Positions 3,827 through 46,890 of a stretch of 56,024 bases of DNA are shown here, piece by piece. This DNA is from a virus (Duplodnaviria > Caudoviricetes), in the IMG/VR virus record IMGVR_UViG_3300013767_000202, positions 1 to 56,024 of that record. One strand, written 5' to 3'. The notes beneath the pieces were generated by a model. That model searched no databases, was not told the origin of the DNA, and saw only the letters and a program-made list of their open reading frames with translations. The position numbers and the translations under genes were made by a program. The first letter of the stretch is position 1, and each line of letters starts with the position of its first letter.

Positions 3827-4342
3827 TCAATTGTCGGTACCGGTGTAGGTGCCAGTCAGGACTGGACGTCTGGTTCGTTTGGCAAACCCCTCCGCTGTTG
3901 CGATAGGAATTCCGGTGATGGCGCTGATTTCCTTCATTGACATCCCGCCGTCGTATAGTTGCCTGACTTTCAGCACTGCTGAGTCAGGGTGCTTCAGCTT
4001 TCCGTTTGTTCTCCCGCGCGCCGTGGTGCCGTGGGCATCACGATCCCGCATGTTCTGAACATGCAGCACCCAGCGGAGATTGCTTGAGGCGTTGTTGTGG
4101 CGATCGCCATCGCTGTGAGCAACTTCATGCTCAGGTGATGGGCTTTCGCCGAGGAAGGTGATGGCGATCAACCGGTGAGCTAGAAAGGTTTTGAACACCA
4201 TCTTGTTCCACAGCTGGACATTCAAGTACCCGGACTTGTGCGGGGACTGCTTCAGCACGCGACCCGTCTTGGTATTTCTCACGCGCCCGAAATTGCTGGC
4301 CTCGTATGGCCAACCGGGAACAGGTTTCCAGACTTCACTCAT
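3827..4342 (-). CDS. NUMOD4-motif HNH homing endonuclease
   Basis: EVWKPVPG..YEASNFGRVR (NUMOD4); HRLIA..F...VAHSDGDRHNNASSNLRW (HNH). Confidence 0.9.
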   Translation of the reverse strand: MSEVWKPVPGWPYEASNFGRVRNTKTGRVLKQSPHKSGYLNVQLWNKMVFKTFLAHRLIAITFLGESPSPEHEVAHSDGDRHNNASSNLRWVLHVQNMRDRDAHGTTARGRTNGKLKHPDSAVLKVRQLYDGGMSMKEISAITGIPIATAEGFAKRTRRPVLTGTYTGTDN

Positions 4343-6031: not shown

Positions 6032-7411
6032 TCAAGCTGGCTTTTTCGGATAGGTCTTGGTCAGCGCACCATTGACGACATGACCGCGCTTTAGCGCGAC
6101 GCGAGCCAGCTTCTCTCGATCCTTGGCGCTGTGGCTGGCCTGCCCGAGCAGGCCGAAGTAACTGTTGGCCGTCTCGCGTAACTCCTCAGTCGGCGCCGCG
6201 GCCGTGCGCTTCAGCGCCTGCGCCACGGACCGTTTACGAGTTGTGCGGCGCCAGGGCTTGATCACATGCCCGACGAAGTCGACGCCGCGGTCGACCGGCT
6301 GCAGGATCGTTTTCTTCGGGTTGAGTCGGGCGCCCAAGCTCGGCAGGAACGCCTCAATCTGGGCCAGCCACTGATTGAGCTGCTGCGGTGACTCGTGCAA
6401 CAGGACGAAGTCGTCGACGTACCTGATGTAGTGCTTGGCCTTGAGCGCGTGCTTGCAGAACTGGTCCAGGGCATCCAGATACACATTCGCGAAGAACTGC
6501 GACGACAGATTGCCGATTGGCAGCCCGAGGTGCGCCGGCTGCGCGGTCAGGCGCTTATGCTGCGGCACCCGGTTGAACAGATGCGCGGGGCTGCGCACCT
6601 CGTAGTTCTCCCGCGGATCGTGCATCAGGATCTGTTCGGCGAGGGCCCGCCACCAAGGTTCGTTGATTCGGGCGGCCAGCTGCCGGGCAAGCACACGCTT
6701 GTCGATCGACACGAAGAAGTTGGCCAGGTCCAGCTTTAGATACCAGCATGGCCTCGACCAGTTCTGGCTGGCACTGCGGATCTTCGCCTCAAGCCGCTTT
6801 GCGGCGTACAGCGTGCCGCGTCCGGGGATACAAGCGCAGCTGTCCGCTATGAAGCTGCGCTCGATAGCTGGGCCGATGTGGTTGTACAGCAGGTGATGCA
6901 CGATGCGGTCGCGGAAGTCGGCAGCCCAGACCTCGCGGGCTTTTGGCCTTGTGATGACGAAACAGATGGAGCGGCCTGGCCGGTAAGTGCCAGCGATCAG
7001 GTCGTCGTAAAGCTCCAGCAGGTTGATCTCCATGTCCTGCTCGTATCGCCTGGCGCTTGCGGTATTCCGCTTGCGCCGCCGGCAATCGTAGTAGGCCTGG
7101 ACAAGATCCTCGAACTGGAAAGGGGCAACACTTGAATCTGCGGACGGGGCGCACGAGGCGCTCGTTGTTCTTGTCGTCGTAGTTGAGCCAGCCATTCTCA
7201 AAGTCCATGTTGTAGGCGTTGTTGGCTGAGTACTGCGACTTGTCGTGCTATCTACATCGCTCTGCCGAAGGCAATGCCGATCAGCAGAGAAACTGCGCGA
7301 GACCAGCCCGAACGCTTTAGATCGGCGGTATCTCTGATGCGCATGGCGGTGTCCAGCTGGACAGCGGCACGACCAGATTCGGCGCACAGGCAGGAGGGCC
7401 GTAACCCTCAA
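6032..7411 (-). CDS. DGR reverse transcriptase (start uncertain: TTG 7411 or ATG 7195)
   Basis: FRDRIVHH, YLKLDLANFFVSI, GLPIGNLSSQFFANVYL (DGR-type SQ motif), YIRYVDDF, GVDFVG. Confidence 0.95.
   Translation of the reverse strand: MRVTALLPVRRIWSCRCPAGHRHAHQRYRRSKAFGLVSRSFSADRHCLRQSDVDSTTSRSTQPTTPTTWTLRMAGSTTTTRTTSASCAPSADSSVAPFQFEDLVQAYYDCRRRKRNTASARRYEQDMEINLLELYDDLIAGTYRPGRSICFVITRPKAREVWAADFRDRIVHHLLYNHIGPAIERSFIADSCACIPGRGTLYAAKRLEAKIRSASQNWSRPCWYLKLDLANFFVSIDKRVLARQLAARINEPWWRALAEQILMHDPRENYEVRSPAHLFNRVPQHKRLTAQPAHLGLPIGNLSSQFFANVYLDALDQFCKHALKAKHYIRYVDDFVLLHESPQQLNQWLAQIEAFLPSLGARLNPKKTILQPVDRGVDFVGHVIKPWRRTTRKRSVAQALKRTAAAPTEELRETANSYFGLLGQASHSAKDREKLARVALKRGHVVNGALTKTYPKKPA
7134..7238 (-). 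repeat. DGR template repeat (TR)
   Basis: ~105 nt with 7 AAY codons in the VR frame (SQYSANNAYNMDFENGWLNYDDKNNERLVRPVRRF); differs from three VRs only at adenines. Confidence 0.95.
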
Positions 7412-7761
7412 GCAGCGGGCGCGGTTGCGGATTTCTTCCAGGCGTTCGCCTGGCGGCCGACTGAGGCCGTGAGCTTCATAACCTTGGCGTGCTGACCCCG
7501 GCTTATGGCGCCAGAGTCAGAAAGAGCCCTGAACAGGTAGTTGAGCGCCCAGGTGTTCTCGATTACCTGGGTAAGGTGCTGACGCTTGTCTCGCGCCATG
7601 TTGGCCCGCCCAATCAGCAGCAGGATTTCAAGGCCTATGTCTCGAATTTTACTGCCGGCGACTTGCTTCAAGTCGCGAGGAATATGGCGGACCAGGTTGA
7701 GAGAGAACTGGAACAGCTCGTCGGCCACCTTGTGGATTTCCAGCTCCGTGTGCAGGGCCAT
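7408..7761 (-). CDS. avd: DGR accessory variability determinant (Avd, four-helix bundle)
   Basis: 117 aa basic helical protein (IPRDLK...G..IR...GRAN...VGRQANAWKK) between target gene and TR/RT. Confidence 0.85.
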   Translation of the reverse strand: MALHTELEIHKVADELFQFSLNLVRHIPRDLKQVAGSKIRDIGLEILLLIGRANMARDKRQHLTQVIENTWALNYLFRALSDSGAISRGQHAKVMKLTASVGRQANAWKKSATAPAA

Positions 7762-7782
7762 CCTGGCTTCCTCGAAAAGCGA

Positions 7783-7798
7783 GGGCGCCTCGGCGCCC
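7783..7798 (-). promoter_or_regulatory. GC-rich hairpin/cruciform 3' of VR1 (candidate retrohoming element)
   Basis: GGGCGCC-GA-GGCGCCC about 33 nt downstream of VR1. Confidence 0.6.
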
Positions 7799-7818
7799 AT
7801 GAATGAAGGATTGAATGA

Positions 7819-8412
7819 TCAGAAGTACTTTCTGCGGACGGGGCGCACGAGGCGCTCGTAGCTCTTGTCGTCGCAGAGGAGCCAGCCATTCTCAAAGTCC
7901 ATGCCGTAGGCGTAGCCGGCTGAGTACTGCGAACTGGTCCAGTGCCAAGGCTTTCTGAACAGATGTGGCACTGTGATTTCGAGATGGGTTGCCTCACGCC
8001 TGGCCATGAGATAGAAGTCCTTGTGCCCATCGCGCTCGAAGCTTGCGCAGAACCGGGCGGCAGGGTGGTCGTGTTCTCGGTTGCTGCTTGCCAGAAAAGC
8101 AGTGTTGGCCTGTCCGTCCCATGGCGATTTGGCGCCGTCGTGTTCATGGCCGTAGCCACCCCACTCGACGTCGGTTTCGGCATCTGCGCCCGTCGGGACG
8201 ATCAGGTAGTAGGGGCGATCACCGCCCTGGAACAGTCCGCCATTCACACCGCCTTCGCCCGGCCAGATTTCGCCGATGGCGGGAATGCCGCTTGCAGACG
8301 CGACTGGCACAGCGCCGATCGCCAGAGAAGCCAGCTTGAGCACCACCGATTTATCTGGGCTGCTGATCGTCAGGTCGCCGCAGGTGTAGGTCGTCAGTTG
8401 ATTCGCTTGCAT
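7819..8412 (-). CDS. DGR target protein 1 (DUF1566-like/CLec fold)
   Basis: C-terminal VR1; WHWTSSQYS...RLVRPVRR; no signal peptide. Confidence 0.88.
   Translation of the reverse strand: MQANQLTTYTCGDLTISSPDKSVVLKLASLAIGAVPVASASGIPAIGEIWPGEGGVNGGLFQGGDRPYYLIVPTGADAETDVEWGGYGHEHDGAKSPWDGQANTAFLASSNREHDHPAARFCASFERDGHKDFYLMARREATHLEITVPHLFRKPWHWTSSQYSAGYAYGMDFENGWLLCDDKSYERLVRPVRRKYF
7831..7932 (-). repeat. DGR variable repeat VR1
   Basis: 102 nt aligned to TR 7137-7238, 10 mismatches, all at TR adenines. Confidence 0.95.
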
Positions 8413-8530
8413 GGGATGCTCCTGTGAGCTGAATAGGGTGCAGGCGGCCGGAGCTTCCCGACACGCTTCTGGTCTGATCGTCATCCTGACGACCCCGGAA
8501 TCGCCTGCAAAAAAGGAATGAAGAAGCGAA

Positions 8531-9007
8531 TTAGCGAATTGGAAGGCTGCGGACGGGGCGCACGAGGCGCTCGTAGAACTTGTCGACGTAGCCGAGCCAG
8601 CCATCCTCAAAGTCCATGACGTAGGCGTAGTGGGCTGAGTACTGCGTGCTCAGCCAATGCCAGCGATCCTCGCGGAGGGTGATCAGGCCTTCCTGCTTGG
8701 CGGTCATCATGAGTGCCGCCTCCAGGCAAGAGGGGATATGCGCGCCAAGCTCAAGTGCCTTGATGGCGATCTGGCTACCAGCCTCGGCCATGGCGCGGGT
8801 GTTCGCGGCGCCGTCGCTGTAGCTTTTTGCGCCGGCGATGTCTTCGCCATACTCACCCCAGGCCACAGAAAACTCGATATCTGGGAGGATCAGGGCATGC
8901 TCTTGGCTACCCAGCCAGTAGCGTGCGAAGAAGGTTCCGCCGGCGAGCGGCTGTCCACGCTCTGGGAGTTCGGCGGCGGCAACGGATTGTTGTGCATGTT
9001 GAGTCAT
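8531..9007 (-). CDS. DGR target protein 2 (DUF1566-like/CLec fold)
   Basis: C-terminal VR2; DGAANT motif, WHWLSTQYS...RLVRPVRS. Confidence 0.88.
   Translation of the reverse strand: MTQHAQQSVAAAELPERGQPLAGGTFFARYWLGSQEHALILPDIEFSVAWGEYGEDIAGAKSYSDGAANTRAMAEAGSQIAIKALELGAHIPSCLEAALMMTAKQEGLITLREDRWHWLSTQYSAHYAYVMDFEDGWLGYVDKFYERLVRPVRSLPIR
8547..8646 (-). repeat. DGR variable repeat VR2
   Basis: 100 nt aligned to TR 7138-7237, 11 mismatches, all at TR adenines. Confidence 0.95.
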
Positions 9008-9110
9008 GGTTTTCTCCTGGTGTGCGCCGCCCTCCGTGACCGGTGGTGGCAATTTGGTTTGGGTTGGGGTATTTGTGTTCGGCCCGGCATGGAGCCGGAA
9101 GGAGATGCAG

Positions 9111-9362
9111 ATGGTTGATTACACAAAAGGTCGATACAACGTCTTTGCGAGTCGTGGCCCAACCAGCATTATTGTCGGCCGTATAGACGAAGATGAGTTC
9201 GTTCGAAACGACTCTGGAAAATTGCTTTACCGCATAGATGATGATGAGTTTTATGCAGTGGATGGTGGTGCGTACATCGGCCGAATTGAGTCATCAGCTG
9301 ATGGGCGAGCTATGGTTCTTGACCGAAGCCACAATGCTCTTTTCACCATCGTTCCTGAATGA
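9111..9362 (+). CDS. Hypothetical moron protein
   Basis: 83 aa on the opposite strand, AAGGAG RBS. Confidence 0.55.
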   Translation: MVDYTKGRYNVFASRGPTSIIVGRIDEDEFVRNDSGKLLYRIDDDEFYAVDGGAYIGRIESSADGRAMVLDRSHNALFTIVPE

Positions 9363-9371
9363 CGTCATGGC

Positions 9372-9755
9372 TTATTTCGGAATGTCTATTTCGTCGTCAG
9401 GCTCTGGTGGATCGTCGGTGAGCGACTTGATGCCGGCGGCCTGAATGATGCGCGACACCTTTTCAGTAACAGCAAAAGGTGTCGTGACACATCGAAGCAT
9501 TGAGGACTGCGTTTCGAAGTCGGCGGCGATCAGGTTCATCAGCAACAGTTGGTGAACCTCCTGCTGATTGTTGATGCCGTGGGCCTTCATGACCCGCTTG
9601 AGGTCGGGCTTGAACACGCCGGCGACCTCAACCGTAAACTTCTCGACGCCCAATGCAGCGTTCTTGTTTGCCGCCTTCTCGCGCTTCTTGCGCTGTTTTA
9701 TGGCCTCCGCTGTCAGTTGCGGCTCTTCCGGCGTCAGCACCTGTTCTTCGGCCAT
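9372..9755 (-). CDS. Hypothetical phage protein
   Basis: 127 aa, GAGG RBS. Confidence 0.65.
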   Translation of the reverse strand: MAEEQVLTPEEPQLTAEAIKQRKKREKAANKNAALGVEKFTVEVAGVFKPDLKRVMKAHGINNQQEVHQLLLMNLIAADFETQSSMLRCVTTPFAVTEKVSRIIQAAGIKSLTDDPPEPDDEIDIPK

Positions 9756-9836
9756 GGCCTACCTCTTCAATTCCGCTGGCCGGCAAGTCCAGCCAGGTCT
9801 GTCGGCGGCGCGTGGCCGCCCGGTTGGTGGTTCGTT

Positions 9837-10301
9837 TCACGCTGCAACCTTCACCTGATTCCAGGCACCGGCGGCGTAGAACAGCTTTGCGGCCTGCGCC
9901 TCTTCCAGCGTGATCTCGGCAGGAACGGCGATCCACCCTGAAGCGAGTATGTGGTTCGGGTTGCAGCCGTTGCGCAGCCCCAGGTAGTAATGCTCGATCG
10001 CGTCGGTCAGGCGCTCGACCTTGTACATGCCCTGCGGTGAGATCTCCGTGGACTTCAGGTACTCGGTGCCCATCTCATCGCGGCACATGGCGGCGATGTA
10101 GATCGTCCAGTGATAGGAGAAGTCGAACAGGGCGTTGGCGATCGCCAGACTCCGGATCTGCCGGCAGTTCTTCCAGTTCACCATGATCTGGGAGCCGCTC
10201 GGGTCGATGTTCACGACCGCGACATGATTGGTGCTGAGAAGCGCCCGGCAACTACGCTCGGCCCGGGCGAAACCGTTGTTGGGTTTGCGTTTCGATTTCA
10301 T
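9837..10301 (-). CDS. Conserved Pseudomonas phage hypothetical protein
   Basis: 154 aa, coupled in operon. Confidence 0.65.
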   Translation of the reverse strand: MKSKRKPNNGFARAERSCRALLSTNHVAVVNIDPSGSQIMVNWKNCRQIRSLAIANALFDFSYHWTIYIAAMCRDEMGTEYLKSTEISPQGMYKVERLTDAIEHYYLGLRNGCNPNHILASGWIAVPAEITLEEAQAAKLFYAAGAWNQVKVAA

Positions 10302-10540
10302 AGCGAGTTCGCCATTTTGCGCAGTGCCTTGCGGTCGGCAGCCGATATCGGCTTCGGGCGCCGCTTGAGGACCGTTTCAGGGTCTATCTTGCTCGAGCGC
10401 TTGGCGGGTTCTGGATTCAACGGCGGACTTTCGAGTTGTTCGATTTTCCCGTTGGCGGCCAAGTATTGGGCGATCTGGTCGGAAAGGGCGGCAGCAGCAC
10501 CACGCCGCTGCTCGACCAGGTTGAGGTGGTTGCTGATCAT
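10298..10540 (-). CDS. Hypothetical phage protein
   Basis: MISNHLNLVEQ start after GAGG; coupled. Confidence 0.6.
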   Translation of the reverse strand: MISNHLNLVEQRRGAAAALSDQIAQYLAANGKIEQLESPPLNPEPAKRSSKIDPETVLKRRPKPISAADRKALRKMANSL

Positions 10541-10547
10541 GCTGACC

Positions 10548-11111
10548 TCACTTGATCCGGATCGAGCTTTCGCCGCGCTCAAGGTGAGCCCAGGCCGGTT
10601 CCGGTAGCAGTTCATGCTCCGCGTCTTCGCCGGCTTCGATGCGCTTGCGCACAGCTTCGTTGTGATCACGGATTTCCTTGAGCCGGACGGCGATGACTTT
10701 TTTGTCGGGTGTGATCACGCTCTTCACTGAGACAAACTCGTCGGGTACGGCTTGTTCGTTGTCGACGATCACTTTCTCGGGCGAGAGCGCGAGTGTGATA
10801 GTGAACAGTGGCCGCTTGATCGACTTGATGTCTGCGGCCTCCATGTTTCGGCGAAGGTAATCGGTGAGCTGGCCCACGGTGTTTTTCTTGATGCGCTTGA
10901 GTTCGTTGAGGCGGTCGACCTCCTTGTCGATGGCGTCGATATCACCTTCGATGTTGCGGCGCAGCATGACGACGTTATCGGCCTTCACTTCGAACTCGCC
11001 CTTGATGCCATCCATGGTGTCTTGGATAGCTTGGCGTAGGCCTTCGTCGTCGGTGTCAGCAAGCACCGCGAGTTCGGCCATCTGCGCATTAAGTTTGTAG
11101 AGGTCAGTCAT
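10548..11111 (-). CDS. Siphovirus Gp157-family protein
   Basis: MTDLYKL...DTMDGIKGEFEVKA...IPDEF-like, PDKK..I, AHLERGESSIRIK pattern. Confidence 0.8.
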   Translation of the reverse strand: MTDLYKLNAQMAELAVLADTDDEGLRQAIQDTMDGIKGEFEVKADNVVMLRRNIEGDIDAIDKEVDRLNELKRIKKNTVGQLTDYLRRNMEAADIKSIKRPLFTITLALSPEKVIVDNEQAVPDEFVSVKSVITPDKKVIAVRLKEIRDHNEAVRKRIEAGEDAEHELLPEPAWAHLERGESSIRIK

Positions 11112-11857
11112 GCAGCACCTTCCATAGCGTCTTCCAAGTCTGCTTTGCGAGCATCCTTGGCGCGAGTGAACTTGAGTTTGTGGGCCGCGCAATCTGGATC
11201 GGTTTTGCGCAAGTCCAGCTTGCGCATTGCCGACTTGTAGAGCTGTTCCAGCTCATTGAGCGACTGCGCGGTACCAATCAGATGGAGCGTCTCGGCCCGC
11301 CACTCGCGATACTCGGCAGCCAGGCGCTCCTTCGCTTCGATCTTGTCCTCGGCACGCTCAATCTCGGCTTCTCCCAGGCGTTCGTTGACGTAGTGAATGT
11401 CGTCATACAGACCCAGGCGAACGTCCGCGGAAAAGCCAAGTTGGCTCAGGCATTTGCCGATCGCGTCCGTGAGGGACTTCTTCGGTGCGTCGAAGTCGGT
11501 ACTGATGCTTCCGAATTTGTTCTGCGTAATGAACGGCGTGTGCCCGTAGTGGGTGATGGTCTTGCGCTCGCCGTCACCACCCAGGTACCACAGGGAGACC
11601 TTGAGCGTGTGCACCTGGGCGTTGGCCAGCACTGTTCCTTCCTTGTTTAGCAGCGGGCCACCGATGTCGAAGCGCTCTTCGATCACCTCATAACCCCAGC
11701 CAGTACCACATGGGCCGAACTGCTCTGTAGCGCGCTTGGCCAGGTACTGGGCATTAACCGCGGTGCCAGTGAAACCACCGAGGCCGATGTATTCCTTGGT
11801 GAATTTGGGATCGGTCTTTTCGACCTCTTCCCACAGGGCGAGGTTGGGTGTAGGCAT
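11108..11857 (-). CDS. Rad52/Sak-like single-strand annealing protein
   Basis: FGPCGTGWGY, DAPKKSLTDAIGKCLSQLGFSADV motifs; next to gp157. Confidence 0.65.
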   Translation of the reverse strand: MPTPNLALWEEVEKTDPKFTKEYIGLGGFTGTAVNAQYLAKRATEQFGPCGTGWGYEVIEERFDIGGPLLNKEGTVLANAQVHTLKVSLWYLGGDGERKTITHYGHTPFITQNKFGSISTDFDAPKKSLTDAIGKCLSQLGFSADVRLGLYDDIHYVNERLGEAEIERAEDKIEAKERLAAEYREWRAETLHLIGTAQSLNELEQLYKSAMRKLDLRKTDPDCAAHKLKFTRAKDARKADLEDAMEGAA

Positions 11858-11996
11858 GACTATCTCCCGCCGCGTAGGTACGCAGCTTTGAAAGATGAAG
11901 GTTATTGGGCGAGGTGATCAGAGAGAGTGCTGACCAGCATTGCGCATGTGTAGAGAACTAGGGGTGGGAAGGAGTCGCGCAGGTAGAAAAGGGCGA

Positions 11997-12170
11997 TCAC
12001 GACTCGACCAGCGACAGAAGCCGTTCGCCCAGGGCGATCCTGGCGCTAGCTTGCTCTTTCTTGATGCCTGTGGCTTGGGCCACTTCTGAAAGGGACAAAC
12101 CTTCGCGCCGTAGCTTCGCGCAGCGGATCGCCAGTTGCTGGCTGCGCTTGTGCGCGCCGGTGCCGCTCAT
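11997..12170 (-). CDS. Small HTH-like protein
   Basis: LRREGLSLSEVAQATGI; ATGA-coupled. Confidence 0.55.
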   Translation of the reverse strand: MSGTGAHKRSQQLAIRCAKLRREGLSLSEVAQATGIKKEQASARIALGERLLSLVES

Positions 12171-12616
12171 GCTGCATCCGCTTTGAGCTGTTCCGCTCTG
12201 TCTGCGGCTCGGTCGGCATCCAGTTCCTCGACGCGCGCTCGGCCGTACTCGTTGGCCCACGGCCTGATAAGCGCCTCGGCAACGTCGTGGAGCGCCGTGG
12301 GGTGCGTTTTGTTCTTTGGCTGCCCCAAGGCCTCGCAAGCCAGATCGAAGGTCTTGCCGTGCACCCGGCGTCCGTCTGCGATGACTTCACAGATCATTCG
12401 CTCAATCGGATATTCGCGGTTGTCGGTCAGCAGCGGGGCGATGTGTTCCTGGGCGCCCAGGTGCTCGGCCAGCGCCTCCCACAGCGATTGCGGAGTCACC
12501 AAAGCAACCGTCTTGCCGTGAGCTCGCGGCGCCGTGACGTTGTCACCGCAGATCAGCGAGTTGATTGCGTCATGGAGCCAGTCCGGCCCTTCAGCGGTGT
12601 CGAGGAAATCAGTCAT
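12167..12616 (-). CDS. Hypothetical phage protein
   Basis: 149 aa, AGGAG RBS. Confidence 0.65.
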   Translation of the reverse strand: MTDFLDTAEGPDWLHDAINSLICGDNVTAPRAHGKTVALVTPQSLWEALAEHLGAQEHIAPLLTDNREYPIERMICEVIADGRRVHGKTFDLACEALGQPKNKTHPTALHDVAEALIRPWANEYGRARVEELDADRAADRAEQLKADAA

Positions 12617-12619
12617 GGT

Positions 12620-12868
12620 CTACTCCTGGGATTCAAGCTTGCGCGCCAAAGCGCAGGCCTCGTTGTGATCGCGACGAAAGCCACGGGCTTTGCCGGTGCG
12701 ACCATCCACGACATGGAAGAAGGCCACACCTGCCGGCTTCACAACGAAGCGAGGCATCGCCACCGGTGATGGCCGGCCGATCAGTGCGTAGAGGTCTTCC
12801 GTAGCGATGCGAGAACGAAGACGTAGTGCTGCGCGTACTTCTTTGCCGAGCTGAACACTTGGGTGCAT
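12620..12868 (-). CDS. Hypothetical phage protein
   Basis: 82 aa, GGAG RBS. Confidence 0.65.
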   Translation of the reverse strand: MHPSVQLGKEVRAALRLRSRIATEDLYALIGRPSPVAMPRFVVKPAGVAFFHVVDGRTGKARGFRRDHNEACALARKLESQE

Positions 12869-13033
12869 GACTGTCTCCAGAGTGGCGTGGTGTTAATCCA
12901 ACAAAACTCGCAATGCACTCATCCGCTCCGCTGGTTGCCGCTGGGCGCGGAGGGGAGTGCATTCGCAGTTGTGTTGAAAAGGGTGGGTACCGGTCTTTCC
13001 CGGCTGTCAGGGGAAAAGCATTGAAGGAATGAA

Positions 13034-13515
13034 TTACTGAAGGAATCTGCGGACGGGCGCACGAGGCGCTCGTTGAGCTTGACGTCGTAGTTGAGCCAGC
13101 CACCCTCAAAGTCCATGCTGCAGGCGTAGTTGGCTGAGTACTGCGTGCTTGAAATGTAGTACCAATCCGTTGCGAACGACCCTGGGGCGTACTGCCAAGC
13201 GTGATGCAGTTCGCCGATGGATGCGAGATAGAAGTCGGCGTGGCTGTCGGCGGTGTAGCTGGCAGCGGCGATGGCTGCGGGGTGCTTACCTTCGCGGGCC
13301 AGCAGGATCGCAGTGTTCGCGCGACCATCAGCGCGGCTTTCGGCTTCGACCTTCACACCGTAATCGCCATAGGCGTGGCGCCCTGGAAGATCTTTCTCCG
13401 CAGCGATGACGTGGCAAAGGCCTTCTGGGTACTGGCGGAGACCGAGATAGATGCCACCCTGGCCCGGCCAAACTTCGCCGATGGCCGGCGGGGTGAGTTG
13501 CTGTTGTGCGTTCAT
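13034..13515 (-). CDS. Remote DGR target protein 3 (DUF1566-like); 1-nt deletion in VR extends the ORF to 12919
   Basis: Paralog of target 1 (PAIGEVWPGQGG, DG.ANT, HPAA, DFYL); restoring one C gives ...RPVRRFLQ* at 13034. Confidence 0.85.
13043..13145 (-). repeat. DGR variable repeat VR3
   Basis: Aligned to TR 7134-7237: 8 substitutions all at TR adenines plus one C deletion (CCCC to CCC). Confidence 0.93.
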
Positions 13516-13637: not shown

Positions 13638-14423
13638 TCAGTCGTAGATGCCGTAGCTCAGGTCATCTGTGTCGCAGTCGATCAACAAAATGGCGTTGCC
13701 GAAGTACAGGGACGCCAACATACGCTCCCACTTCGAATACACCTGCATGTCGATGGCGATCTTCTTGTCGTCCAGTTTGGCGCTGTAGACCTCGCCAAAC
13801 GCCATGATCGGTTTCCAGCGGTCACCGGTTTCACGCTCGCCCTTGATGCTGACGTGCAGTGCGTGTTTCAGGCTGTAGTTGCTGCGCGCTGAAGACGAGT
13901 AATGGCTGCTCCGGTAACTGTCTTCCGGCTCTGGATCGAAGTAGATGTGGATCGTCTTGTGGGAATAGCTGCCGTCGCCTTCTTCGACGCGAATTTCTGG
14001 GCGCTCCCATCGGCCTTCGGCGGCGCTCTCTTTGTGGTGCTCCACGAACTCGTCGAGCAGTTTCTTCAACGAAACCTCGCCGGTCAGCAAGCCCTCACCG
14101 GTGAGCACATCAGCTATGGACTTTTCGGCGCGCTCCAAGATGAGCGAACCCATGGCTGCTTGTTCCCAGCGCTGGCTTAGGGCGTTGGCGACGAGGGCGT
14201 TGTAGCGCTGAAGCTCGAACATGTCGGTGACGTTGGCCGGCAGTGCAGACTTGACGGCTTCCTTTATTGCTCCGCCGAAGTCGCCGTAGGAACGAAAGGT
14301 GCCACTCACAACTTCTTTGAACAGCTTGTCGATGCCCTCGTCGATCAGTTCACGCGGGCGGTCGGACTGGGCGTATGCAGTGACGCGCTCGGCAAGTAGC
14401 GCTTGAAGGGTTTGTTCGCTCAT
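13638..14423 (-). CDS. Conserved hypothetical phage protein
   Basis: MSEQTLQALL start after GGAG; 261 aa. Confidence 0.7.
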   Translation of the reverse strand: MSEQTLQALLAERVTAYAQSDRPRELIDEGIDKLFKEVVSGTFRSYGDFGGAIKEAVKSALPANVTDMFELQRYNALVANALSQRWEQAAMGSLILERAEKSIADVLTGEGLLTGEVSLKKLLDEFVEHHKESAAEGRWERPEIRVEEGDGSYSHKTIHIYFDPEPEDSYRSSHYSSSARSNYSLKHALHVSIKGERETGDRWKPIMAFGEVYSAKLDDKKIAIDMQVYSKWERMLASLYFGNAILLIDCDTDDLSYGIYD

Positions 14424-14492
14424 TTGATGCTCCGTGCTTGATCGGTTGTTTTCCCAATGCACCCGTCACCAGGTGCATCAGTGAAAAGACCG

Positions 14493-14776: not shown

Positions 14777-15160
14777 TCAGACAGTCAGTGCTGGACATTC
14801 AGCCCGGCGCACCACGCGCACCTGCATCGTGCGCCTATCCGGCACCCGTCGATCGCGCAGCATTGAGTCGCCATCGAGCATCGAGTGCATGGCAACCAGC
14901 GCGGCGAGAACGAAGCACGCCGGAGAAATGATCTGCCGCTTCATGGCCTCGGCCACAAGGGCAGTGCGGCGCGTGACGCCGAGCTTGAACATCGCGTTGG
15001 TAAGGCGATTTTTCACGCCGCCTGGCGTGATGCCCGACTCTCTGGCGATCTCTTTCGAGGTTAATCCCTGGGCAATCCAGAGAAGGAATTGAAGCTCTCG
15101 CGGCGCAAGACCACGTCCGAGGTGGCCCTTCCATGCGCCGTTGATGATTGTTGCTTCCAT
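14777..15160 (-). CDS. LuxR-type HTH transcriptional regulator
   Basis: LAPRELQFLLWIAQGLTSKEIARESGI...V...L..AMFKLGV..R. Confidence 0.85.
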   Translation of the reverse strand: MEATIINGAWKGHLGRGLAPRELQFLLWIAQGLTSKEIARESGITPGGVKNRLTNAMFKLGVTRRTALVAEAMKRQIISPACFVLAALVAMHSMLDGDSMLRDRRVPDRRTMQVRVVRRAECPALTV

Positions 15161-15702
15161 CGTTGTGACTCCCGGTTGGTTTCCCGCTGCACCCGGCAAG
15201 CCAGGTGCAATGGTGAAACGGTCGTTAAGTGCCCGGTCCCGCTACTGGCGTCGGACCGGGTTTGTTGCGTCAGCGATGTTGGCCAGTTGCCCGCCGCTGA
15301 TTGCAGGGCTGGCCGGTCGTCTTCGGTGGGGCCTCGAGCTTCCTCCCCGCAGCGTCAAACAGCATCTGTCCGCCTTGGATCACAGGTCCTTACAACATGC
15401 ACGCTACAGCTCTGTGTGCCCGGCTGGGTGAGGCAGGGTGCATGAGGTCCGGCACCCCTCATAGCCGAAGCTCGGGGCGCTAATTTTTGAATCTGTCTCG
15501 CTACGCTTATCTGGGTCATTCGCCAGTTCGGTATCCCTCGTCCGCCGCAGGTTCTCCCTGCGTTTCCTTCCAGCGCCCCAGTCACTCCCAGGGTGGTAGG
15601 TCAGATCGGATCGCCGGTCTCCAGTAGAGGCGTAGCGGCCAATCGTTAGGTTTTGTTGAGAGCCTTTGCATCGACCCTCCCTGTCCCTGCCGGACAGGAG
15701 GC

Positions 15703-16617: not shown

Positions 16618-17496
16618 TTAGGTCGCCACAGTGGCTCTAGGTATTTTCGCATCAGGCACGGAGATGCCTTCTTTGAAGAACATGACCTCGTCGCCAACAT
16701 ATCGCGCCTGGGCGGTGTAGTGCAGTCCGTAAGTTAGAGCCTCGTTCTGGCTGTACATCTCACAGATTTCTGGTGCGCTATCGTACGAGACTACCCATGG
16801 TCTCTCGAAGTCAGTCGACTGCAGCAATTGAGCAATTTGCAGATGATCATCGTGCTTGTAGAAGTTTCGGTATAGGCCGCGCCCTTTAACGTAGTACGGC
16901 GGGTCAAGGTAGATCAGTGATTGCTCTGGCAGAAACTCTGCTGCGCGACTGAGCAAAAGAAAGGCGTCCTCGCAATATACCGAAATCCGATCTGCATTCA
17001 GCGCGATTCGTTCAAGCCTGGCTGCAATCATCTCCTTGCTGAATCGCGCATCGAGTTTGTAGGCGCCAGTCTGCGATTTTCCCCCGATGACTCCACCCTT
17101 GAGGATGCCGGATCGGTTTGTGCGGTTCACGAAAAGTGTAGCGAAACCCCTCTCGGCAAGGGAGAGCTCAGGGTCTTGTCCAAGCATCACGGAGCGCCAG
17201 TGATGCCATTGCTCCATGGTGATTGGTGTGTCCCGTAGTAGTTTTAGAATTCCATCCGGATCGGTTGTCGCGGCTGACCAGAAGGCGAATACGGCCGGAT
17301 CGAGATCATTGACATGAATATGCGTTGCATGCCCGTCGAAAAGAAGCTCTAAGGCAACTCCGGCTCCGCCAGCAAACGGCTCGAGATAGTGCCCGCCCGC
17401 CAGGCCATTAGCCCGCATCACCTCGGCAATGAAAGGCGCAAAGCGAGCCTTACCGCCTGGGTAGCGTAGGGGGCTGTATAGCTTGTTGGAGTACAT
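16618..17496 (-). CDS. DNA adenine methyltransferase (Dam/D12 class)
   Basis: SPLRYPGGK, EPFAGGAG (motif I), NDLD, YLDPPY (motif IV), VSYD. Confidence 0.92.
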   Translation of the reverse strand: MYSNKLYSPLRYPGGKARFAPFIAEVMRANGLAGGHYLEPFAGGAGVALELLFDGHATHIHVNDLDPAVFAFWSAATTDPDGILKLLRDTPITMEQWHHWRSVMLGQDPELSLAERGFATLFVNRTNRSGILKGGVIGGKSQTGAYKLDARFSKEMIAARLERIALNADRISVYCEDAFLLLSRAAEFLPEQSLIYLDPPYYVKGRGLYRNFYKHDDHLQIAQLLQSTDFERPWVVSYDSAPEICEMYSQNEALTYGLHYTAQARYVGDEVMFFKEGISVPDAKIPRATVAT

Positions 17497-17560
17497 TGAG
17501 TCTCATCCCTTGAGGTGCGCGCGACCTCAGTTTAACGGCCGGCAGTATACTTGGCCAGCC

Positions 17561-19306
17561 CTATTCCGGAACGGCAGAAGCTGTTTTTTTTGCCTCAGGT
17601 GCATCAAGAATTTTGAGCAATGCCGAATCGATACCATGACCATTGACCATGGTGCTCCGCAGGCTTTTCCGGAGACTCTCTCTGAATGCCTCTGCAAACT
17701 CCGCGTTATGCTTAACCCAGGCTCTATAAGGATTTTTGGCTGTTCCTCCATTGACCATGCTCAAAAATGTCGCGTTTTTTGCGAAGGCCTTGAAGTGACC
17801 TCGAAGGCGCTGATCCTCTGGCCCGGATTTTTTCCGGTAGTTAGCCACGAGCTGCACCATGTCAATGATCTCTTCGGCAGGGTCAATCTGAAGCACCTCA
17901 GAAATTTTATCGCATAACGAAATGAAAACAGGCTTGTTAAATCCAGAGGTGTTTTTCCAATAAGGGTCTTCTGGTGGGAGGTTATATAGGAATTCAAAGA
18001 TGAGTTGGTCCGGCGGCAGGGCTCCGGGAAGTTTAAGAATACTGTCCATGCCTTTCACTCCCTCGACATCTCCGTCAAGAATTATAAGGCTTTTACTGCA
18101 AAATTCTGGGATTTTTCGCTTTACTAACTTTATGTATTCAGAACAGCCGAGGGCCACATCTTTTAATGTATTTGTGATTTTTTTGGTGGTTCGATCGTTA
18201 ACTATAGACGCATAAAGGTCGTATGCTTCCTTGTCCTCGAAATACAAGTTTATTTGAGGTAGCAGATTTGTGTCTACAGCAATAGTTTGCACATGAAGGT
18301 CGGCATATATCTGTGGCCAAGTAACATTTTCAAATACTTGTATTGGTCCGTAGCTGTCGCTCAAATATATGTTTTGGTAATTTTCTTTGTCTACCAGGCT
18401 TAATTTTTGAAGGTCCTCGATCATTGTGGGGGAGTGGGAGGTCATGATCACTTGTAAGTTTAGATCTTTGCATTCCTCGGTGAGAATTTTAATTAATTGT
18501 TTTTGTGCCGCTGGAAACAATCCAGCATCCGCTTCATCAATAAGTAAAAGCCCGCCTTTGTAGTCGGCATATTCTTCTTTTAGCTTTCTGAATGAAAAGA
18601 TGGCCAGCAATATTTGACCAGCATTATCTTCGCCGGCTGAAACCGAATCGTGATCATAGTTATCGCCGTGTGCAGTGGCAGACTTTATCGTGCCAGTGGT
18701 TGCCGTTACAGATGTCGCGGAGCGCTTGCTTAACAGCCTATTACTGAGCGCTACGAAAGCACGGCGATGCTCAGACAGAAACTCTATATCATGCTCCGAA
18801 TATTTCGGGCGTTGAGATATTGGAGTTAAACGCTTGAGGCTTAGATAAATAACTGGGTGCGTTGCGTTGCGGCTCGTATTCTCTCCATCTGAAAGTGTAT
18901 TTCCTCGGACGATTGGTCTAGGCTTACTTCTGTCTTTCGAGTCGTATAGTTTTAATATTAGGTCAGCCTCGTCAGATGTATAGCCATCATATATAGATAC
19001 CGAAGTTTCCATGGAGTCCGGCCTGTCGAATTTCTTCGATAATCTGAAGTGCTCTGAAACTCTTGACTCAAACTTGGCGCCTGTAAGCGTTTGGAATGAA
19101 AGTAATTCGTCTTTGTTGTAGTCTTTTTCGAAACTAAAGACTTGAGCAGCAATGCCTAGGATGGAAGATTTTGAAGTGCCATTTTTTCCGCAAAGAAGTG
19201 TAATTCGCCTACCCAGCGGTACAGTTAAATCTTTTAATCCCCTGAAGTGAGATATGTTTATTTTTTTAATGTGTGTATGTTTGTCTCTGTTATTTTTTTG
19301 TCCCAC
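17561..19306 (-). CDS. ABC/AAA ATPase with C-terminal TOPRIM-like domain (OLD-like)
   Basis: Walker A GKNGTSKS, signature SAGE, Walker B LLIDEAD, H-loop TSHS; C-terminal YFED...LGC...ILDGD. Confidence 0.82.
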   Translation of the reverse strand: MGQKNNRDKHTHIKKINISHFRGLKDLTVPLGRRITLLCGKNGTSKSSILGIAAQVFSFEKDYNKDELLSFQTLTGAKFESRVSEHFRLSKKFDRPDSMETSVSIYDGYTSDEADLILKLYDSKDRSKPRPIVRGNTLSDGENTSRNATHPVIYLSLKRLTPISQRPKYSEHDIEFLSEHRRAFVALSNRLLSKRSATSVTATTGTIKSATAHGDNYDHDSVSAGEDNAGQILLAIFSFRKLKEEYADYKGGLLLIDEADAGLFPAAQKQLIKILTEECKDLNLQVIMTSHSPTMIEDLQKLSLVDKENYQNIYLSDSYGPIQVFENVTWPQIYADLHVQTIAVDTNLLPQINLYFEDKEAYDLYASIVNDRTTKKITNTLKDVALGCSEYIKLVKRKIPEFCSKSLIILDGDVEGVKGMDSILKLPGALPPDQLIFEFLYNLPPEDPYWKNTSGFNKPVFISLCDKISEVLQIDPAEEIIDMVQLVANYRKKSGPEDQRLRGHFKAFAKNATFLSMVNGGTAKNPYRAWVKHNAEFAEAFRESLRKSLRSTMVNGHGIDSALLKILDAPEAKKTASAVPE

Positions 19307-19653: not shown

Positions 19654-20424
19654 TTACAGCTTCCGCGCATTCCAAACGAGCAGGACACGAGCCTGTATGT
19701 GAACCCGCTCAAGCTGTGCACCCTCGATCATGATCGCTGGGTAAACAGGGTTATCCGAAATCATGCGAAGCGATCCGCCGGTCATGCGCTGGAGTCGCTT
19801 AATGAACAAGTCGCCGTCCAAGGTAAAGACGTAAACGGCATCGGTGCGTATCTCGGTGATGCCGCGATCAACCAGCAGGGAATCACCATTTCGGAATGTC
19901 CCTTCCATGCTGTCGCCGTCACCATCAATGATCGCGAGATTCTCCGGCTTCGAGTAGGAAAGCCCTTGGGTTTTCAGCCAATCGAGGTGGACGGTTATAT
20001 CTCGGATCACCTCGATGTGGTGTTCCGGCGGCGTGCGACCATTTCCCATGGAGCCAGCGATATCTAGGTGGGGGATGGTAATAAAGCTTGAGTCTGGAGT
20101 TTTCCTGCGTGAATCAATTGCAATCACATTGCTTTCCTTGGCACTGCTCGATCCTATTGCTTGGGCAATTTTTGCCATTTCATCAGCTAGTCGCTCGCTG
20201 AACTCGCGGACATCCACTTTCAATATGCTCGCGAATGAGGCGGCTACAGATGAATTGAGAGGATTGACGCCGTTGAGGTAGTGGCTCACCGAGCTCTGGT
20301 TCATTTCCAGAGCGTGCGCCAGTTTCTCCTGGGTCAACCCGAGCTCATTTTTTTTCGAATTGAAGATGGCCTTCAGTCGAAGGCACTCATCTTTCTTGTC
20401 TTGCGGTAAGGGCTTCTTGCTCAT
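19654..20424 (-). CDS. cI: CI-like repressor (HTH plus S24 peptidase)
   Basis: LTQEKLAHALEMNQSSVSHYLNG HTH; GDSM and FIKRL catalytic Ser/Lys; divergent from cro. Confidence 0.92.
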   Translation of the reverse strand: MSKKPLPQDKKDECLRLKAIFNSKKNELGLTQEKLAHALEMNQSSVSHYLNGVNPLNSSVAASFASILKVDVREFSERLADEMAKIAQAIGSSSAKESNVIAIDSRRKTPDSSFITIPHLDIAGSMGNGRTPPEHHIEVIRDITVHLDWLKTQGLSYSKPENLAIIDGDGDSMEGTFRNGDSLLVDRGITEIRTDAVYVFTLDGDLFIKRLQRMTGGSLRMISDNPVYPAIMIEGAQLERVHIQARVLLVWNARKL

Positions 20425-20435
20425 CCCCGAATCGT

Positions 20436-20501
20436 ATTCCCATCGGTAATATAGCCACAAATGCCAATGGCATTTACTTTCAAAAATGCCATAGGTAATA
20501 T
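20436..20501. promoter_or_regulatory. OR1-OR3 operators and pR
   Basis: 15-bp sites at 20436, 20460 and 20485 (consensus AATGCCAnnGGYAWT), 24-25 bp spacing; pR TTTACT-N17-TAATAT. Confidence 0.8.
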
Positions 20502-20532
20502 CTCGGCATGAAAAACCGCGGAGAGCTCTCCC

Positions 20533-20739
20533 ATGAACCGAATTCACATTACTGATTTTGCCCGCTGTCTTGGGCAGTGCGAGGCAGCCGACCTGCTGAA
20601 TATGACGCAGGGCGCGCTTAGCAAGGCGATAAGAGTGGGGCGCGATATTTACGTCACGCCTTATCCAGACGGGCGATGCGAAGCCGAAGAAGTTAGGCCG
20701 TTTCCATCGCAGAACCAGACAAAAAAGCAGGCTGCATAA
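20533..20739 (+). CDS. cro: Cro repressor
   Basis: GQCEAADLLNMTQGALSKAIRVGRDI...AEEVRPFPS, lambda Cro-like. Confidence 0.9.
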   Translation: MNRIHITDFARCLGQCEAADLLNMTQGALSKAIRVGRDIYVTPYPDGRCEAEEVRPFPSQNQTKKQAA

Positions 20740-20813
20740 CTGGCAAATCTGCCCACCAATCCATGCAGCCAGTATCGGCCTTGCCGGCCTGCGCAGATAG
20801 AAGCCTGAAGTCA

Positions 20814-20829
20814 CTGTTAATTCATCCAG
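20814..20829. promoter_or_regulatory. Candidate LexA/SOS box upstream of Rha antirepressor
   Basis: CTGTTAATTCATCCAG (CTG-N10-CAG). Confidence 0.45.
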
Positions 20830-20900
20830 TGACCAAATCCCAGACACAAAAAAGCCACCGGACGAGGGTGGCTTATTCGCAAAACTAGAGAGGCCCGATT

Positions 20901-21707
20901 ATGCATAGCCAACCTACTTCAAGCAATACCCCCAACAGTGTCGCGACACGTTTTTCGAATTCTGAAAACGTGTCGCGCACCACCATGTCGTCCCGCGAGA
21001 TCGCGAATGTCACCGGCAAACGCCACGACAACGTAAAGCGCGATATCGTCGCGATGCTCAAAGACCTGAAAGTAGATGTACTCAGTTTTGAGGACATCTA
21101 TCTGGATGGGCGCAATCGGGAACAGGTGCAATACCTGCTCGACCGCGAACACACCGACTGCCTGCTCACCGGCTATAGCGCTCCGATGCGCATGAAGGTG
21201 ATCCGCCGCTGGCGCGAACTGGAACAACAGCAGGGCGCTCGCGAGCAGGTTCTGCTCAGCGGCACCAAGGTAGTTGGTGAAATCGCCATCATGGAGTGTT
21301 TCACCCGCCTGCTGAAACCCGCGCCGTCGTGCCAGATGGCAATGCTCACGAAGATCGCCCAGAACAACGGTCTTGACCCGAAGTTTCTCCCAGGCTACGC
21401 CGTCGACGCCGCGTCAGATGCTAGCGGCGGATCCTCGATGCCCACCAAGTCAGCCACGGCCTTGCTGAAAGACAACGGCATTCGCGTGTCACCCGCCGCG
21501 TTCAACCGCGCACTGGAAACCAAGGGCTTTCTGAAGCGGATCCAGCGCAAGAACTCCAAACAGGAAATGGTTCCGTTCTGGTCGGTGACCGAGAAAGGCA
21601 TGACCTACGGCAAGAACCTGACCAACCCCCAATCCCCACGCGAAACCCAGCCTCACTGGTATGTGGATCGTTTCCCTGAGCTGGCCAAACTTGTCGGGAA
21701 GGCCTGA
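20901..21707 (+). CDS. Rha-family regulator/antirepressor
   Basis: TMSSREIA.VTGKRHDNVKRDI (Rha); C-terminal VTEKG..YGKN...ETQPHWY. Confidence 0.82.
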   Translation: MHSQPTSSNTPNSVATRFSNSENVSRTTMSSREIANVTGKRHDNVKRDIVAMLKDLKVDVLSFEDIYLDGRNREQVQYLLDREHTDCLLTGYSAPMRMKVIRRWRELEQQQGAREQVLLSGTKVVGEIAIMECFTRLLKPAPSCQMAMLTKIAQNNGLDPKFLPGYAVDAASDASGGSSMPTKSATALLKDNGIRVSPAAFNRALETKGFLKRIQRKNSKQEMVPFWSVTEKGMTYGKNLTNPQSPRETQPHWYVDRFPELAKLVGKA

Positions 21708-21708
21708 T

Positions 21709-22314
21709 ATGCAATTCACCGTCACGATCAATCAGGTGAAGGCGCTGGAGTGGGGGCTGAACTCTCAGCAGGCCCTGTTGTTCGCCTTCGTCTACGGCTG
21801 CCCGAGTTGGACGAAGCCAATCAAGACTGACGACGGGATCTTCTTCGCGCTGAGCAAGGCCAAGATCATCGAGGAGCTGCCGCTGCTCACTGACAAGCCG
21901 GACACTGCCTATCGCATGCTGAAGGCCCTGGAAAAGGCCGGCCTGCTGGAGATTCGAGAGGTCGAGAGCGAAGACGTTATCCAAGCCTGCTTCACTGATA
22001 AGGCCAGACGCTGGTCTCCTGCGTTCTCCATCGGCATGGATTCCACTCCGTGCGTCTATGTGCGCAGGCCGGTAAGGCGCTCTAGCAAGAAACCAATTCC
22101 AAAGCAGCTTCGCGCCCAAGTCTTTGAGCGTGACAGCTACGTGTGTCTGCGCTGCGGGTGCAGTGATCTTCATCGACTGCGTGCCGACCATGTTTTCCCG
22201 GAAAGCAAAGGCGGACTGGCGACGCTCGAAAACCTGCAAACCCTCTGCATGTCCTGCAACACCTGGAAGGCCGTTAAAACAATCGACTTTCGTGTATCTG
22301 GAGGCAGGCCATGA
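21709..22314 (+). CDS. Replication-protein N-terminus fused to HNH nuclease
   Basis: MQFTVTINQ...LLTDKPDTAYR N-terminus; C-terminal VFERD..CLRC...DHVFPESKGG...NLQTLCMSCN. Confidence 0.75.
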   Translation: MQFTVTINQVKALEWGLNSQQALLFAFVYGCPSWTKPIKTDDGIFFALSKAKIIEELPLLTDKPDTAYRMLKALEKAGLLEIREVESEDVIQACFTDKARRWSPAFSIGMDSTPCVYVRRPVRRSSKKPIPKQLRAQVFERDSYVCLRCGCSDLHRLRADHVFPESKGGLATLENLQTLCMSCNTWKAVKTIDFRVSGGRP

Positions 22315-26988: not shown

Positions 26989-27074
26989 CTGCACACTGGT
27001 ATGATTGCGACATGAGCAGGATCACGACCTGCCAACCCGCTTCGGGGGACTCGGTTCGATCCCGGCTACGCAGC
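26989..27074 (+). pseudogene. Degenerate tRNA-like element
   Basis: 5-bp GCAGG/CCTGC stem with 7-nt loop, long variable arm, GGTTCGATCC T-loop; acceptor stem only 5/7 paired, D arm poor. Confidence 0.35.
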
Positions 27075-27181
27075 CTTCCTTGATAGCGATCCTTTTTTTG
27101 ACGATGGTTATTTTGACCGCACTTTCAAGCTTCATTGGATCGCTGACCGCAACAGCTCAATTTGCGGGCAAGGAGTTACAG

Positions 27182-39383: not shown

Positions 39384-39700
39384 GCGTCGCACGCGCCCTC
39401 TACGAGCAAGGGCCTTCGGCTGAAGAGCTGAAGACCTTTGGCTTTATGGTCGGCGACCTTACCGGCCAGGACTGCGAGGTTTGGCCGGACAACTGGCCGG
39501 CGTTCACGGTTTTTGAGGCGATGAGCACCCAGTGGCGAGTGGGCGCGTGCGGCGCTACCGGCCTGGACTACGGCGTTCTGCCGGGCGTCATCCGAATGTG
39601 CGGCGTACCACTCGCTGAGCGGCAAGGCATCTTCAGCGACATCCGACAGATGGAGGCTGAAGCCCTGCAGGTGATGGCGGAACAGAGAGAACACAAATGA
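39371..39700 (+). CDS. Tail chaperone GT extension via -1 frameshift (DUF1799-like)
   Basis: G GGA AAC at 39371-39377; the -1 frame is open into EVWPDNW...TQWR.G..GLDY. Confidence 0.8.
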   Translation, partial: GKLLSVARALYEQGPSAEELKTFGFMVGDLTGQDCEVWPDNWPAFTVFEAMSTQWRVGACGATGLDYGVLPGVIRMCGVPLAERQGIFSDIRQMEAEALQVMAEQREHK

Positions 39701-45284: not shown

Positions 45285-45378
45285 GGCGACCTCCTAGGTC
45301 ATAAACGCGCCGAAATTGGCGCAACCCCAGTCCTTGGGCTTGCAGGCAAAGGACTGGGGAAATCCCTTATGGTGAAAT

Positions 45379-46881: not shown

Positions 46882-46890
46882 GTTCAGCAC

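Follow-up and report, generated by a model that had tools for sequence, protein, structure and literature searches.

In the textbook view, the diversity-generating retroelements (DGRs) of phages diversify tail fibres, and Mtd, the diversified protein of phage BPP-1, is 381 amino acids (aa) long. The BPP-1 element comprises a reverse transcriptase (RT), the accessory protein Avd, a template repeat (TR) and a variable repeat (VR) at the 3' end of a gene for a protein with C-type lectin (CLec) fold, with mutagenesis at adenines, a 3' end rich in guanine and cytosine (GC) and a hairpin (PMC5758913). The same parts are found in the DGR described here, which is encoded in a prophage, the IMG/VR provirus record IMGVR_UViG_3300013767_000202; the entire record of 56,024 bases was analyzed and is referred to as the window. 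In the window a clear hairpin follows the first VR only. The two elements differ in that the single target of BPP-1 is Mtd, the protein of the tail-fibre tip, whereas the window has three short targets in the early arm, and in the structured RNA located 5' of the window TR. Targets of the Mtd type are encoded with the tail genes and possess N-terminal trimerising domains; the window targets are early-arm genes, and no Mtd-family match was obtained for them from Pfam, PHROGs or NCBIfam.

Several properties of the window element have precedents. Legionella LdtA and the category 'd' targets of Wu et al. 2018, which have CLec2 VRs, share the DUF1566 domain with the window targets; short DUF1566-only targets fall into this category, and multi-target as well as remote-target DGRs were described in the same work (PMC5758913). 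According to Roux et al. 2021, viral targets of clades 1, 4 and 6 are mostly tail proteins, and for 71% of sequences belonging to the main target clusters, no domain could be recognised beyond the VR region (PMC8144416). The cellular DGRs of Thiohalocapsa PB-PSB1 are predicted to diversify CLec sensors that would work in the cytoplasm as part of conflict systems (PMC10907252). The targets of PB-PSB1 are cell-encoded, large multidomain proteins (STAND/NACHT, MoxR-associated), whereas those of the window are phage-encoded and single-domain.

Two isolated phages carry close relatives of the element. Burkholderia phage Magia (MT701587) displays the same order on one strand, namely repressor, remote short lectin-fold target, recombination genes, adjacent short targets, Avd, TR, RT, HNH and integrase. 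Its RT is 64% identical to that of the window, and its three VRs carry 8, 11 and 15 substitutions, 34/34 at adenines. It differs from the window in being a myophage (PMC7883833), where the window tail is lambda-like, in its host genus and in its shorter targets (120-154 aa). The Magia announcement names genes 47 and 57 as short-ORF (open reading frame) targets (PMC7883833); we found that gene 46 (8263-8353 of our Magia locus L089), annotated as hypothetical, also carries a VR, in which each of the 11 substitutions falls at a TR adenine, bringing the total to three VRs. Cruim01 (PP179333), an isolated phage of P. syringae, has an RT 82% identical to that of the window, Avd and an annotated RT-15 RNA. 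On one strand, a remote target near the repressor is followed by recombination genes, two adjacent targets, Avd, TR, RT and integrase, and 35/35 substitutions in its three VRs are at adenines; its TR sequence is its own and other accessory genes lie alongside. Cruim01 was described as a siphovirus, and that description mentions neither a DGR nor a reverse transcriptase (PMC11256456).

The element belongs to a known but barely described DGR lineage, and its layout is not new. The initial annotation, made from the window sequence alone, overstated how distinctive this layout is, as isolated phages carry this RT lineage in the corresponding arm, likewise with short CLec targets. In the literature searched, supplementary tables of Wu et al. 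and Roux et al. excepted, DGR targets in phage early operons are discussed in one sentence of the Magia announcement alone, and no publication was found in which placement in the early arm is regarded as a feature or given a function.

The repeats of the window constitute a real, intact three-target DGR that wrote three VRs (Table 1). A repeat search of the window revealed a single family of direct repeats in four copies, at 7138-7253, 7832-7947, 8547-8662 and 13046-13161. Read in the frame of the VRs, the TR codes for QYSANNAYNMDFENGWLNYDDKNNERLVRPVR, with six AAC codons and one AAT codon. An in-register comparison on the minus strand placed all substitutions of the three VRs (10, 11 and 8) at TR adenines, in a pattern that differs in each VR. 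This bears out the initial annotation, which had proposed a DGR with these substitution counts, an RT with SQ and YVDD motifs, Avd, one TR and three targets. Given the 28 adenines in the 100-nucleotide (nt) core, the chance of finding 29/29 substitutions at adenines is about 9e-17. A conserved 26-mer at the 3' end occurs three times, versus 0 occurrences in 100 shuffles. The VRs end 5-8 codons ahead of the stop codon in targets 1 and 2. The GC-rich 3' end is common to the TR and the VRs; a downstream hairpin, such as an initiation of mutagenic homing (IMH) element would have, is clear for VR1 alone and weaker or lacking after VR2 and VR3. With the TR as query, the 56-kb record gave matches at the four known places only, with no further copy, so that J and the fibre genes are without a VR, as had been annotated.

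Table 1. Coordinates of the DGR components and of neighboring features in the window (nucleotide positions; minus, reverse strand).
Feature	Positions	Strand	Remarks
Tyrosine integrase	1-1050	minus	
HNH endonuclease	3827-4342	minus	
DGR reverse transcriptase	6032-7195	minus	387 aa from ATG 7195, start uncertain; RVT_1, phrog_1423, motifs
Template repeat (TR)	7138-7237	minus	100-nt core CGCAG...CCGCAG, 28 adenines; non-coding copy
RT-15 structured RNA (Rfam RF03018)	7236-7424	minus	directly 5' of TR, between avd and TR
Avd accessory protein	7408-7800	minus	130 aa; Pfam bAvd 51.6 bits (cut-off 40); phrog_3206 'Avd protein of DGR'
GC-rich hairpin	7783-7798	minus	6-bp stem, 4-nt loop; 34 nt 3' of VR1, overlaps avd start
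Target 1	7819-8412	minus	197 aa; AGGAG ahead of ATG 8412; N-terminal beta-hairpin and helix, then CLec/DUF1566 domain (predicted)
VR1	7832-7931	minus	10 substitutions, all at TR adenines
Target 2	8531-9007	minus	158 aa; phrog_4245 96.9 bits; near enough the CLec domain alone
VR2	8547-8646	minus	11 substitutions, all at TR adenines
Gp157-family protein	10548-11192	minus	
Annealing/exonuclease-family protein	11108-11857	minus	
Target 3	12919-13515	minus	198 aa as it stands; phrog_4245 91.5 bits; remote from cassette, C-terminus frameshifted
VR3	13043-13145 (in-register core 13145-13047)	minus	8 substitutions, all at TR adenines, and a 1-nt deletion
LuxR/sigma-like regulator	14777-15199	minus	
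CI-like repressor	19654-20847	minus	
Ant/Cro-like and replication genes	from 20.9 kb	plus	divergent from repressor arm
Tape measure	39697-42975	plus	
J-type central fibre	48549-51839	plus	

The protein and RNA components agree with this assignment. DGR-type RTs are characterized by a motif 4 ending in SQ together with YxDD, and the RT translation, whose reading frame opens inside the TR, contains LPIGNLSSQ and RYVDDF, that is, IGNLSSQ and YVDD. The class was judged from these motifs and from the matches to Pfam RVT_1 (72.9 bits) and to the DGR-type RT family of PHROGs (phrog_1423 'Reverse transcriptase', 403 bits). The same protein stays far under the curated cut-offs of retron, defence-associated RT (DRT), abortive infection (Abi) and group II models, the best retron and DRT scores in NCBIfam being 28-45 bits versus 200-550. 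Avd exceeds the cut-off of its Pfam family and is under that of NCBIfam DivGenRetAVD (40.6 bits versus 80). The RT-15 RNA matches the full model (1-192) with 177.3 bits versus a gathering score of 82.

RT relatives were found at 402 places in IMG/VR, and the locus analyses cover the best 80 of them. A TR-like copy was detected in 70/80 loci with the window TR as query. These 70 loci hold 151 VRs, with two VRs in 54 loci, three or four in 13 and one in 3. Comparison of each locus with its own TR gave 1953 mismatches at adenine sites, 132 elsewhere and 45 gap columns. The non-adenine mismatches are clustered in a few loci (L017, L023, L025, L058, L063 and L080), where a wrong TR may have been chosen or the element may be decaying. 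With the longest open frame taken for each VR, a stop codon lies 5-12 codons past TR position 100 in 120/151 VRs, an alternative frame having often been picked in the other 31; a motif rule retained 21 VR-bearing ORFs, all with tails of 12-13 residues. In an alignment of target 1 orthologs (120 sequences, 69-100% identical), variability is highest (entropy of at least 3.0 bits) in seven columns, 167, 170, 179, 180, 181, 184 and 185, all of them coded by TR codons containing adenine. RTs of isolated phages are 80-82% identical to the window RT in Cruim01 and SC_8_H2H8_2017, 70-73% in the P. aeruginosa phages phPA-G, Haboob and LPPA56, and 64% in the Burkholderia phages Magia, vB_E192a and vB_PL1; Shewanella phage vB_Sb_QDWS also carries the lineage. 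The lineage is widespread in temperate phages of Pseudomonas, Burkholderia and Shewanella and, judged from these sequences, appears to be active in nature.

The three targets are short paralogs (158-198 aa), as annotated before, with 41-44% identity (41% between targets 1 and 2), and all match the C-terminal third of phrog_4245, a family of unassigned function. Although the annotation of VR3 with eight adenine substitutions holds, it missed a 1-nt deletion in a C-run near the 3' end (approximately 13056-13058). Because of this deletion, target 3 is frameshifted at its C-terminus, where an out-of-frame tail of 47 residues takes the place of ...VRPVRR, and ends in ...RLVRPSAD plus 42 more out-of-frame residues in place of ...RLVRPVRRFLQ, thereby losing the nearly invariant V192 and the invariant R193 of the family. 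Due to the frameshift, target 3 is probably decaying in this prophage. Two neighboring genes were noted. A 274-aa protein of phrog_2600, a family that assigns no function, is encoded immediately upstream of target 3 (13638-14462, minus strand). The DUF1566 homolog of the RT-less phage PAN70 also comes after a gene for a hypothetical protein about as long, PAN70_040; the likeness to the 274-aa protein lies in length and position alone, and the two genes may form a conserved pair. An ORF of about 84 aa (9110-9362, plus strand), in the space that separates target 2 from the early gene following it, is the sole plus-strand candidate near the DGR within the leftward arm.

The targets were further screened for export signals. 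Targets 2 and 3 possess no hydrophobic segment in the hydropathy screen, consistent with the earlier statement that the targets lack a signal peptide or transmembrane segment. For target 1 the second half of that statement is unsafe, since residues 23-41 form a hydrophobic stretch (Kyte-Doolittle 19-mer mean 1.76) that ends in A-S-A and is kept in orthologs, including P0129. A crude hydropathy screen covered 139 representative relatives with lengths of 150-270 aa. Neither a lipobox nor a start resembling a signal peptide was seen in any of them, and two contain a hydrophobic 19-mer; therefore most of these proteins would remain in the cytoplasm unless packaged. LdtA of Legionella, by comparison, is a surface lipoprotein (PMC5758913), while the window targets, like 139/139 relatives, show neither a lipobox nor a signal-like start.

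The targets are predicted to adopt the C-type lectin (DUF1566/Lcl_C) fold. An AlphaFold2 model of target 1, based on an alignment of 105 relatives, reached a predicted local distance difference test (pLDDT) value of 94.4. Its best Foldseek match in the PDB is the C-terminal domain of Legionella Lcl (8q4e_A; E 9.6e-4, template modelling score (target) 0.63, 145 columns), followed by C-type-lectin-like proteins and the Bdellovibrio adhesin tip Bd2740 with E above 0.05. Sixteen matches at E <= 0.001 were obtained in BFVD, six of them named DUF1566; short DUF1566 phage proteins are found there, including one from D3, as are the DUF1566 tips of long fibre-type phage proteins. The fold expected in the initial annotation is thus supported by the model and the Lcl match. 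At the sequence level, Pfam Lcl_C (PF07603) gave 18.1 bits for target 1 versus a gathering score of 34.9 and no match for targets 2 and 3, and close homologs of target 1 in many Pseudomonas species carry the public name 'DUF1566 domain-containing protein'. A predicted homotrimer of target 1 (score 0.00, mark 0.42) gives no answer either way. The representative search also returned a few multi-domain relatives, such as P0122, a giant tandem-DUF1566 protein of 3693 aa with 17 stretches matching the lectin domain.

The prophage has a lambda-like layout, with a leftward arm on the minus strand and the tail module on the plus strand. The targets belong to the leftward arm, which is bounded by the CI-like repressor and the integrase; they lie among recombination genes and are 26-41 kb away from the tail genes; the tape measure, M/L/K/I-like genes and J span 39.7-51.8 kb on the strand opposite to the DGR. 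Synteny in the 80 loci was analyzed by local tblastn with repressors, recombination proteins and integrases. CI-like genes, detected in 30 loci, lie upstream of the RT on the same strand in 30/30. Recombination genes are on the RT strand in 38/38 loci, upstream in 30 and downstream in 8, and integrases are downstream in 19/19, 16 of them co-oriented. The cassette occurs across a lambda-like siphovirus tail background in the window, the siphovirus Cruim01 and the myophage Magia. On this comparison of gene order, the early-arm position appears to be conserved and the tail type not. Regarding the pL early operon to which the targets had been assigned, the arm from repressor to integrase with its recombination genes agrees, whereas promoter support amounts to one weak minus-strand match at 15825-15797; transcription from a pL-type promoter is suggested by the gene order.

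Homologs of the targets are also kept in the same arm of the RT-less phages D3, PAN70, Medea1 and Aurca01, three genes after the repressor in D3 and as two genes in tandem in Medea1. In Aurca01 (L085/L091), avd, TR and RT are replaced by a gene annotated as 'RecB' and a hypothetical gene. Three orphan VRs of Aurca01 differ from the Cruim01 TR at 14, 14 and 16 adenines and nowhere else, and the two of Medea1 (L086) at 12 adenines (plus one other position) and at 18. Since these RT-less phages hold orphan VRs, the targets were retained after the loss of the diversifier.

We consider it close to certain that the window carries an intact DGR of an early-arm lineage, with three short, stand-alone CLec-fold paralogs as targets whose AAC/AAT-coded residues are randomised. 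By analogy with the BPP-1 DGR (PMC5758913), the TR would be transcribed together with the RT-15 RNA element 5' of it. RT and Avd would then copy the TR RNA while misreading adenines, and the resulting complementary DNA would replace the last ~100 nt of the target genes, two of which adjoin avd and one of which lies 5 kb upstream, thereby randomising seven or eight AAC/AAT-coded residues. The position of the targets suggests that they are early and non-structural. At somewhat under even odds, they would be non-virion soluble binders made with the early genes in the infected or induced cell, with the variable face recognising a molecule of the host or of a competitor that itself varies; specificities would therefore differ from one phage genome to another, and selection would act on the set of cells open to exploitation once the phage has entered. 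To the explanation as a whole, a DGR that diversifies early soluble binders, we assign a probability of roughly 0.5. A further step is put forward tentatively and is less likely to hold: that the DGR is an intracellular counterpart of tropism switching, maintaining an early lectin-fold binder library whose variants would engage or neutralise host factors that vary, for example defence proteins or those of competitors, and evolving post-entry host range rather than adsorption. As a hypothesis, a role of the targets as cytoplasmic anti-defence binders, proposed already in the initial annotation, is plausible. The host-takeover adaptors and hetero-oligomers put forward there are speculative.

Several observations weigh against early soluble binders. 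No PADLOC model matched the targets, nothing was returned for them from NCBIfam either, and these scans yielded no link from the targets to any defence or anti-defence system. With its hydrophobic stretch, target 1 could be membrane-anchored or exported. Many of the 80 loci gave no match to any synteny marker and are uninformative on position. Promoter-consensus matches numbered 2 versus 3.0 expected in shuffles, and the match at 15825-15797 is a location hint only because the counts are at or below this expectation. A search of sequencing runs for this DNA listed one DNA run, possibly of the source sample, and no RNA run. Its assembled contigs contain a single sequence of each VR, with no alternative letters at the VRs or at the VR3 deletion; as contigs drop rare variants, they are uninformative on DGR activity or expression. 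The lack of export signals is also compatible with a virion role, because tail fibres likewise have no signal peptides.

It is unlikely, by our estimate, that the targets are instead accessory proteins of the virion, for receptor binding or decoration, which would dock on the particle although their genes lie away from the tail module, with the DGR switching adsorption specificity as in BPP-1. The structural neighborhood speaks for such a role and against soluble early binders: the nearest structural relatives, including the best PDB neighbors, are extracellular adhesin tips (Lcl, Bd2740 and phage fibre ends), and CLec/DUF1566 forms the C-terminal tip of long fibre-type BFVD proteins (Peptidase S74, collagen-repeat, 'tail fiber protein'). 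The viral targets of clades 1, 4 and 6 are mostly tail proteins (PMC8144416), and the confidently modelled small N-terminal module of target 1 could dock on something. However, all three genes are on the early strand and distant from the tail genes, and the cassette follows the early arm across the lambda-like siphovirus, a second siphovirus and a myophage. Targets 2 and 3 moreover comprise little beyond the lectin domain, with no obvious attachment module, and a search of 1091 candidates for longer proteins with the domain fused to others returned none at E <= 1e-8 (weak evidence).

A role in the lysogen is less probable still; here the targets, made from the prophage, would be variable proteins that sense or block invaders such as superinfecting phages, with target 1 anchored in the inner membrane. 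The conserved hydrophobic residues 23-41 of target 1 with their A-S-A end would fit this role, as would the CLec sensors proposed for cellular DGRs in conflict systems (PMC10907252) and a probable defence pair in the same arm, a PD-Lambda-5_B-like methyltransferase and an ATPase. On the other hand, the gene order suggests that the targets, downstream of the recombination genes, belong to an arm normally silenced by the CI-type repressor. There is no evident effector domain or partner and no PADLOC match, and targets 2 and 3 have no hydrophobic segment.

We give a small chance, lower than for the lysogen role, to the element of the window being a fossil whose VRs were written in the past and which no longer works here. 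The frameshifting deletion of target 3, within the GC-rich 3' end of its VR, would agree with this, as would the orphan VRs of Aurca01 and Medea1, which show that targets persist without a diversifier, and the single VR sequence in the contigs of one run, uninformative as that is for rare variants. Nevertheless, RT, Avd, RT-15 RNA and TR are uninterrupted and the catalytic YVDD is present, and recent copying is argued by the zero non-adenine substitutions in the three 100-nt repeats. Finally, a defence-type RT (retron, DRT or Abi) next to repeats reflecting unrelated paralog conservation, for which weak generic PADLOC and NCBIfam matches to DRT and retron RT models could be cited, was rejected as next to impossible, because the scores are far below curated cut-offs (e.g. 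Drt3a 42.6 versus 200), Avd adjoins, and one repeat copy, non-coding for lectin and located between avd and RT, has 29/29 of the substitutions at its adenines.

Other parts of the window showed the following. Between the CI-like repressor and the early-left genes, a methyltransferase and a 581-aa ATPase are encoded on the minus strand (16618-19306) with a GC content of 0.46-0.51. The methyltransferase matches PADLOC PD-Lambda-5_B with 364 bits, and its ATPase partner has AriA/PtuA/GajA/Old-type matches. Judging from these matches, the low-GC pair is probably a prophage-borne defence system; it occupies the position of rexAB in lambda. An insert of lower GC content (0.53-0.58) at 44900-47400 separates the K-like from the I-like tail gene and looks like a moron within the tail module; one of its genes, at 46706-47401, is of a lipoprotein family (phrog_890). 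Two neighboring ORFs on the plus strand (21661-23276) split the halves of phrog_11527, the first with an HNH domain and the second with an O-like replication initiator domain; a replication gene may have been split here or invaded by an HNH element. A tRNA-Val (CAC) is located at 26989-27075 in the late-early region.

The lineage is common, with several isolated, culturable members, and its targets are found consistently among early genes across tail types. If the early binder library is real, the layout of two adjacent targets plus one near the repressor, together with the frozen VRs that RT-less relatives have kept, would point to the targets as an early-gene function conserved in lambdoid phages of Pseudomonas and Burkholderia. 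Should the targets prove to be virion parts instead, they would represent a new class of small, detachable receptor-binding proteins. If they act inside the cell, DGRs would be seen to shape the evolution of phages at a stage other than adsorption, in parallel with cellular DGRs, for which CLec sensors working in the cytoplasm have been proposed (PMC10907252).

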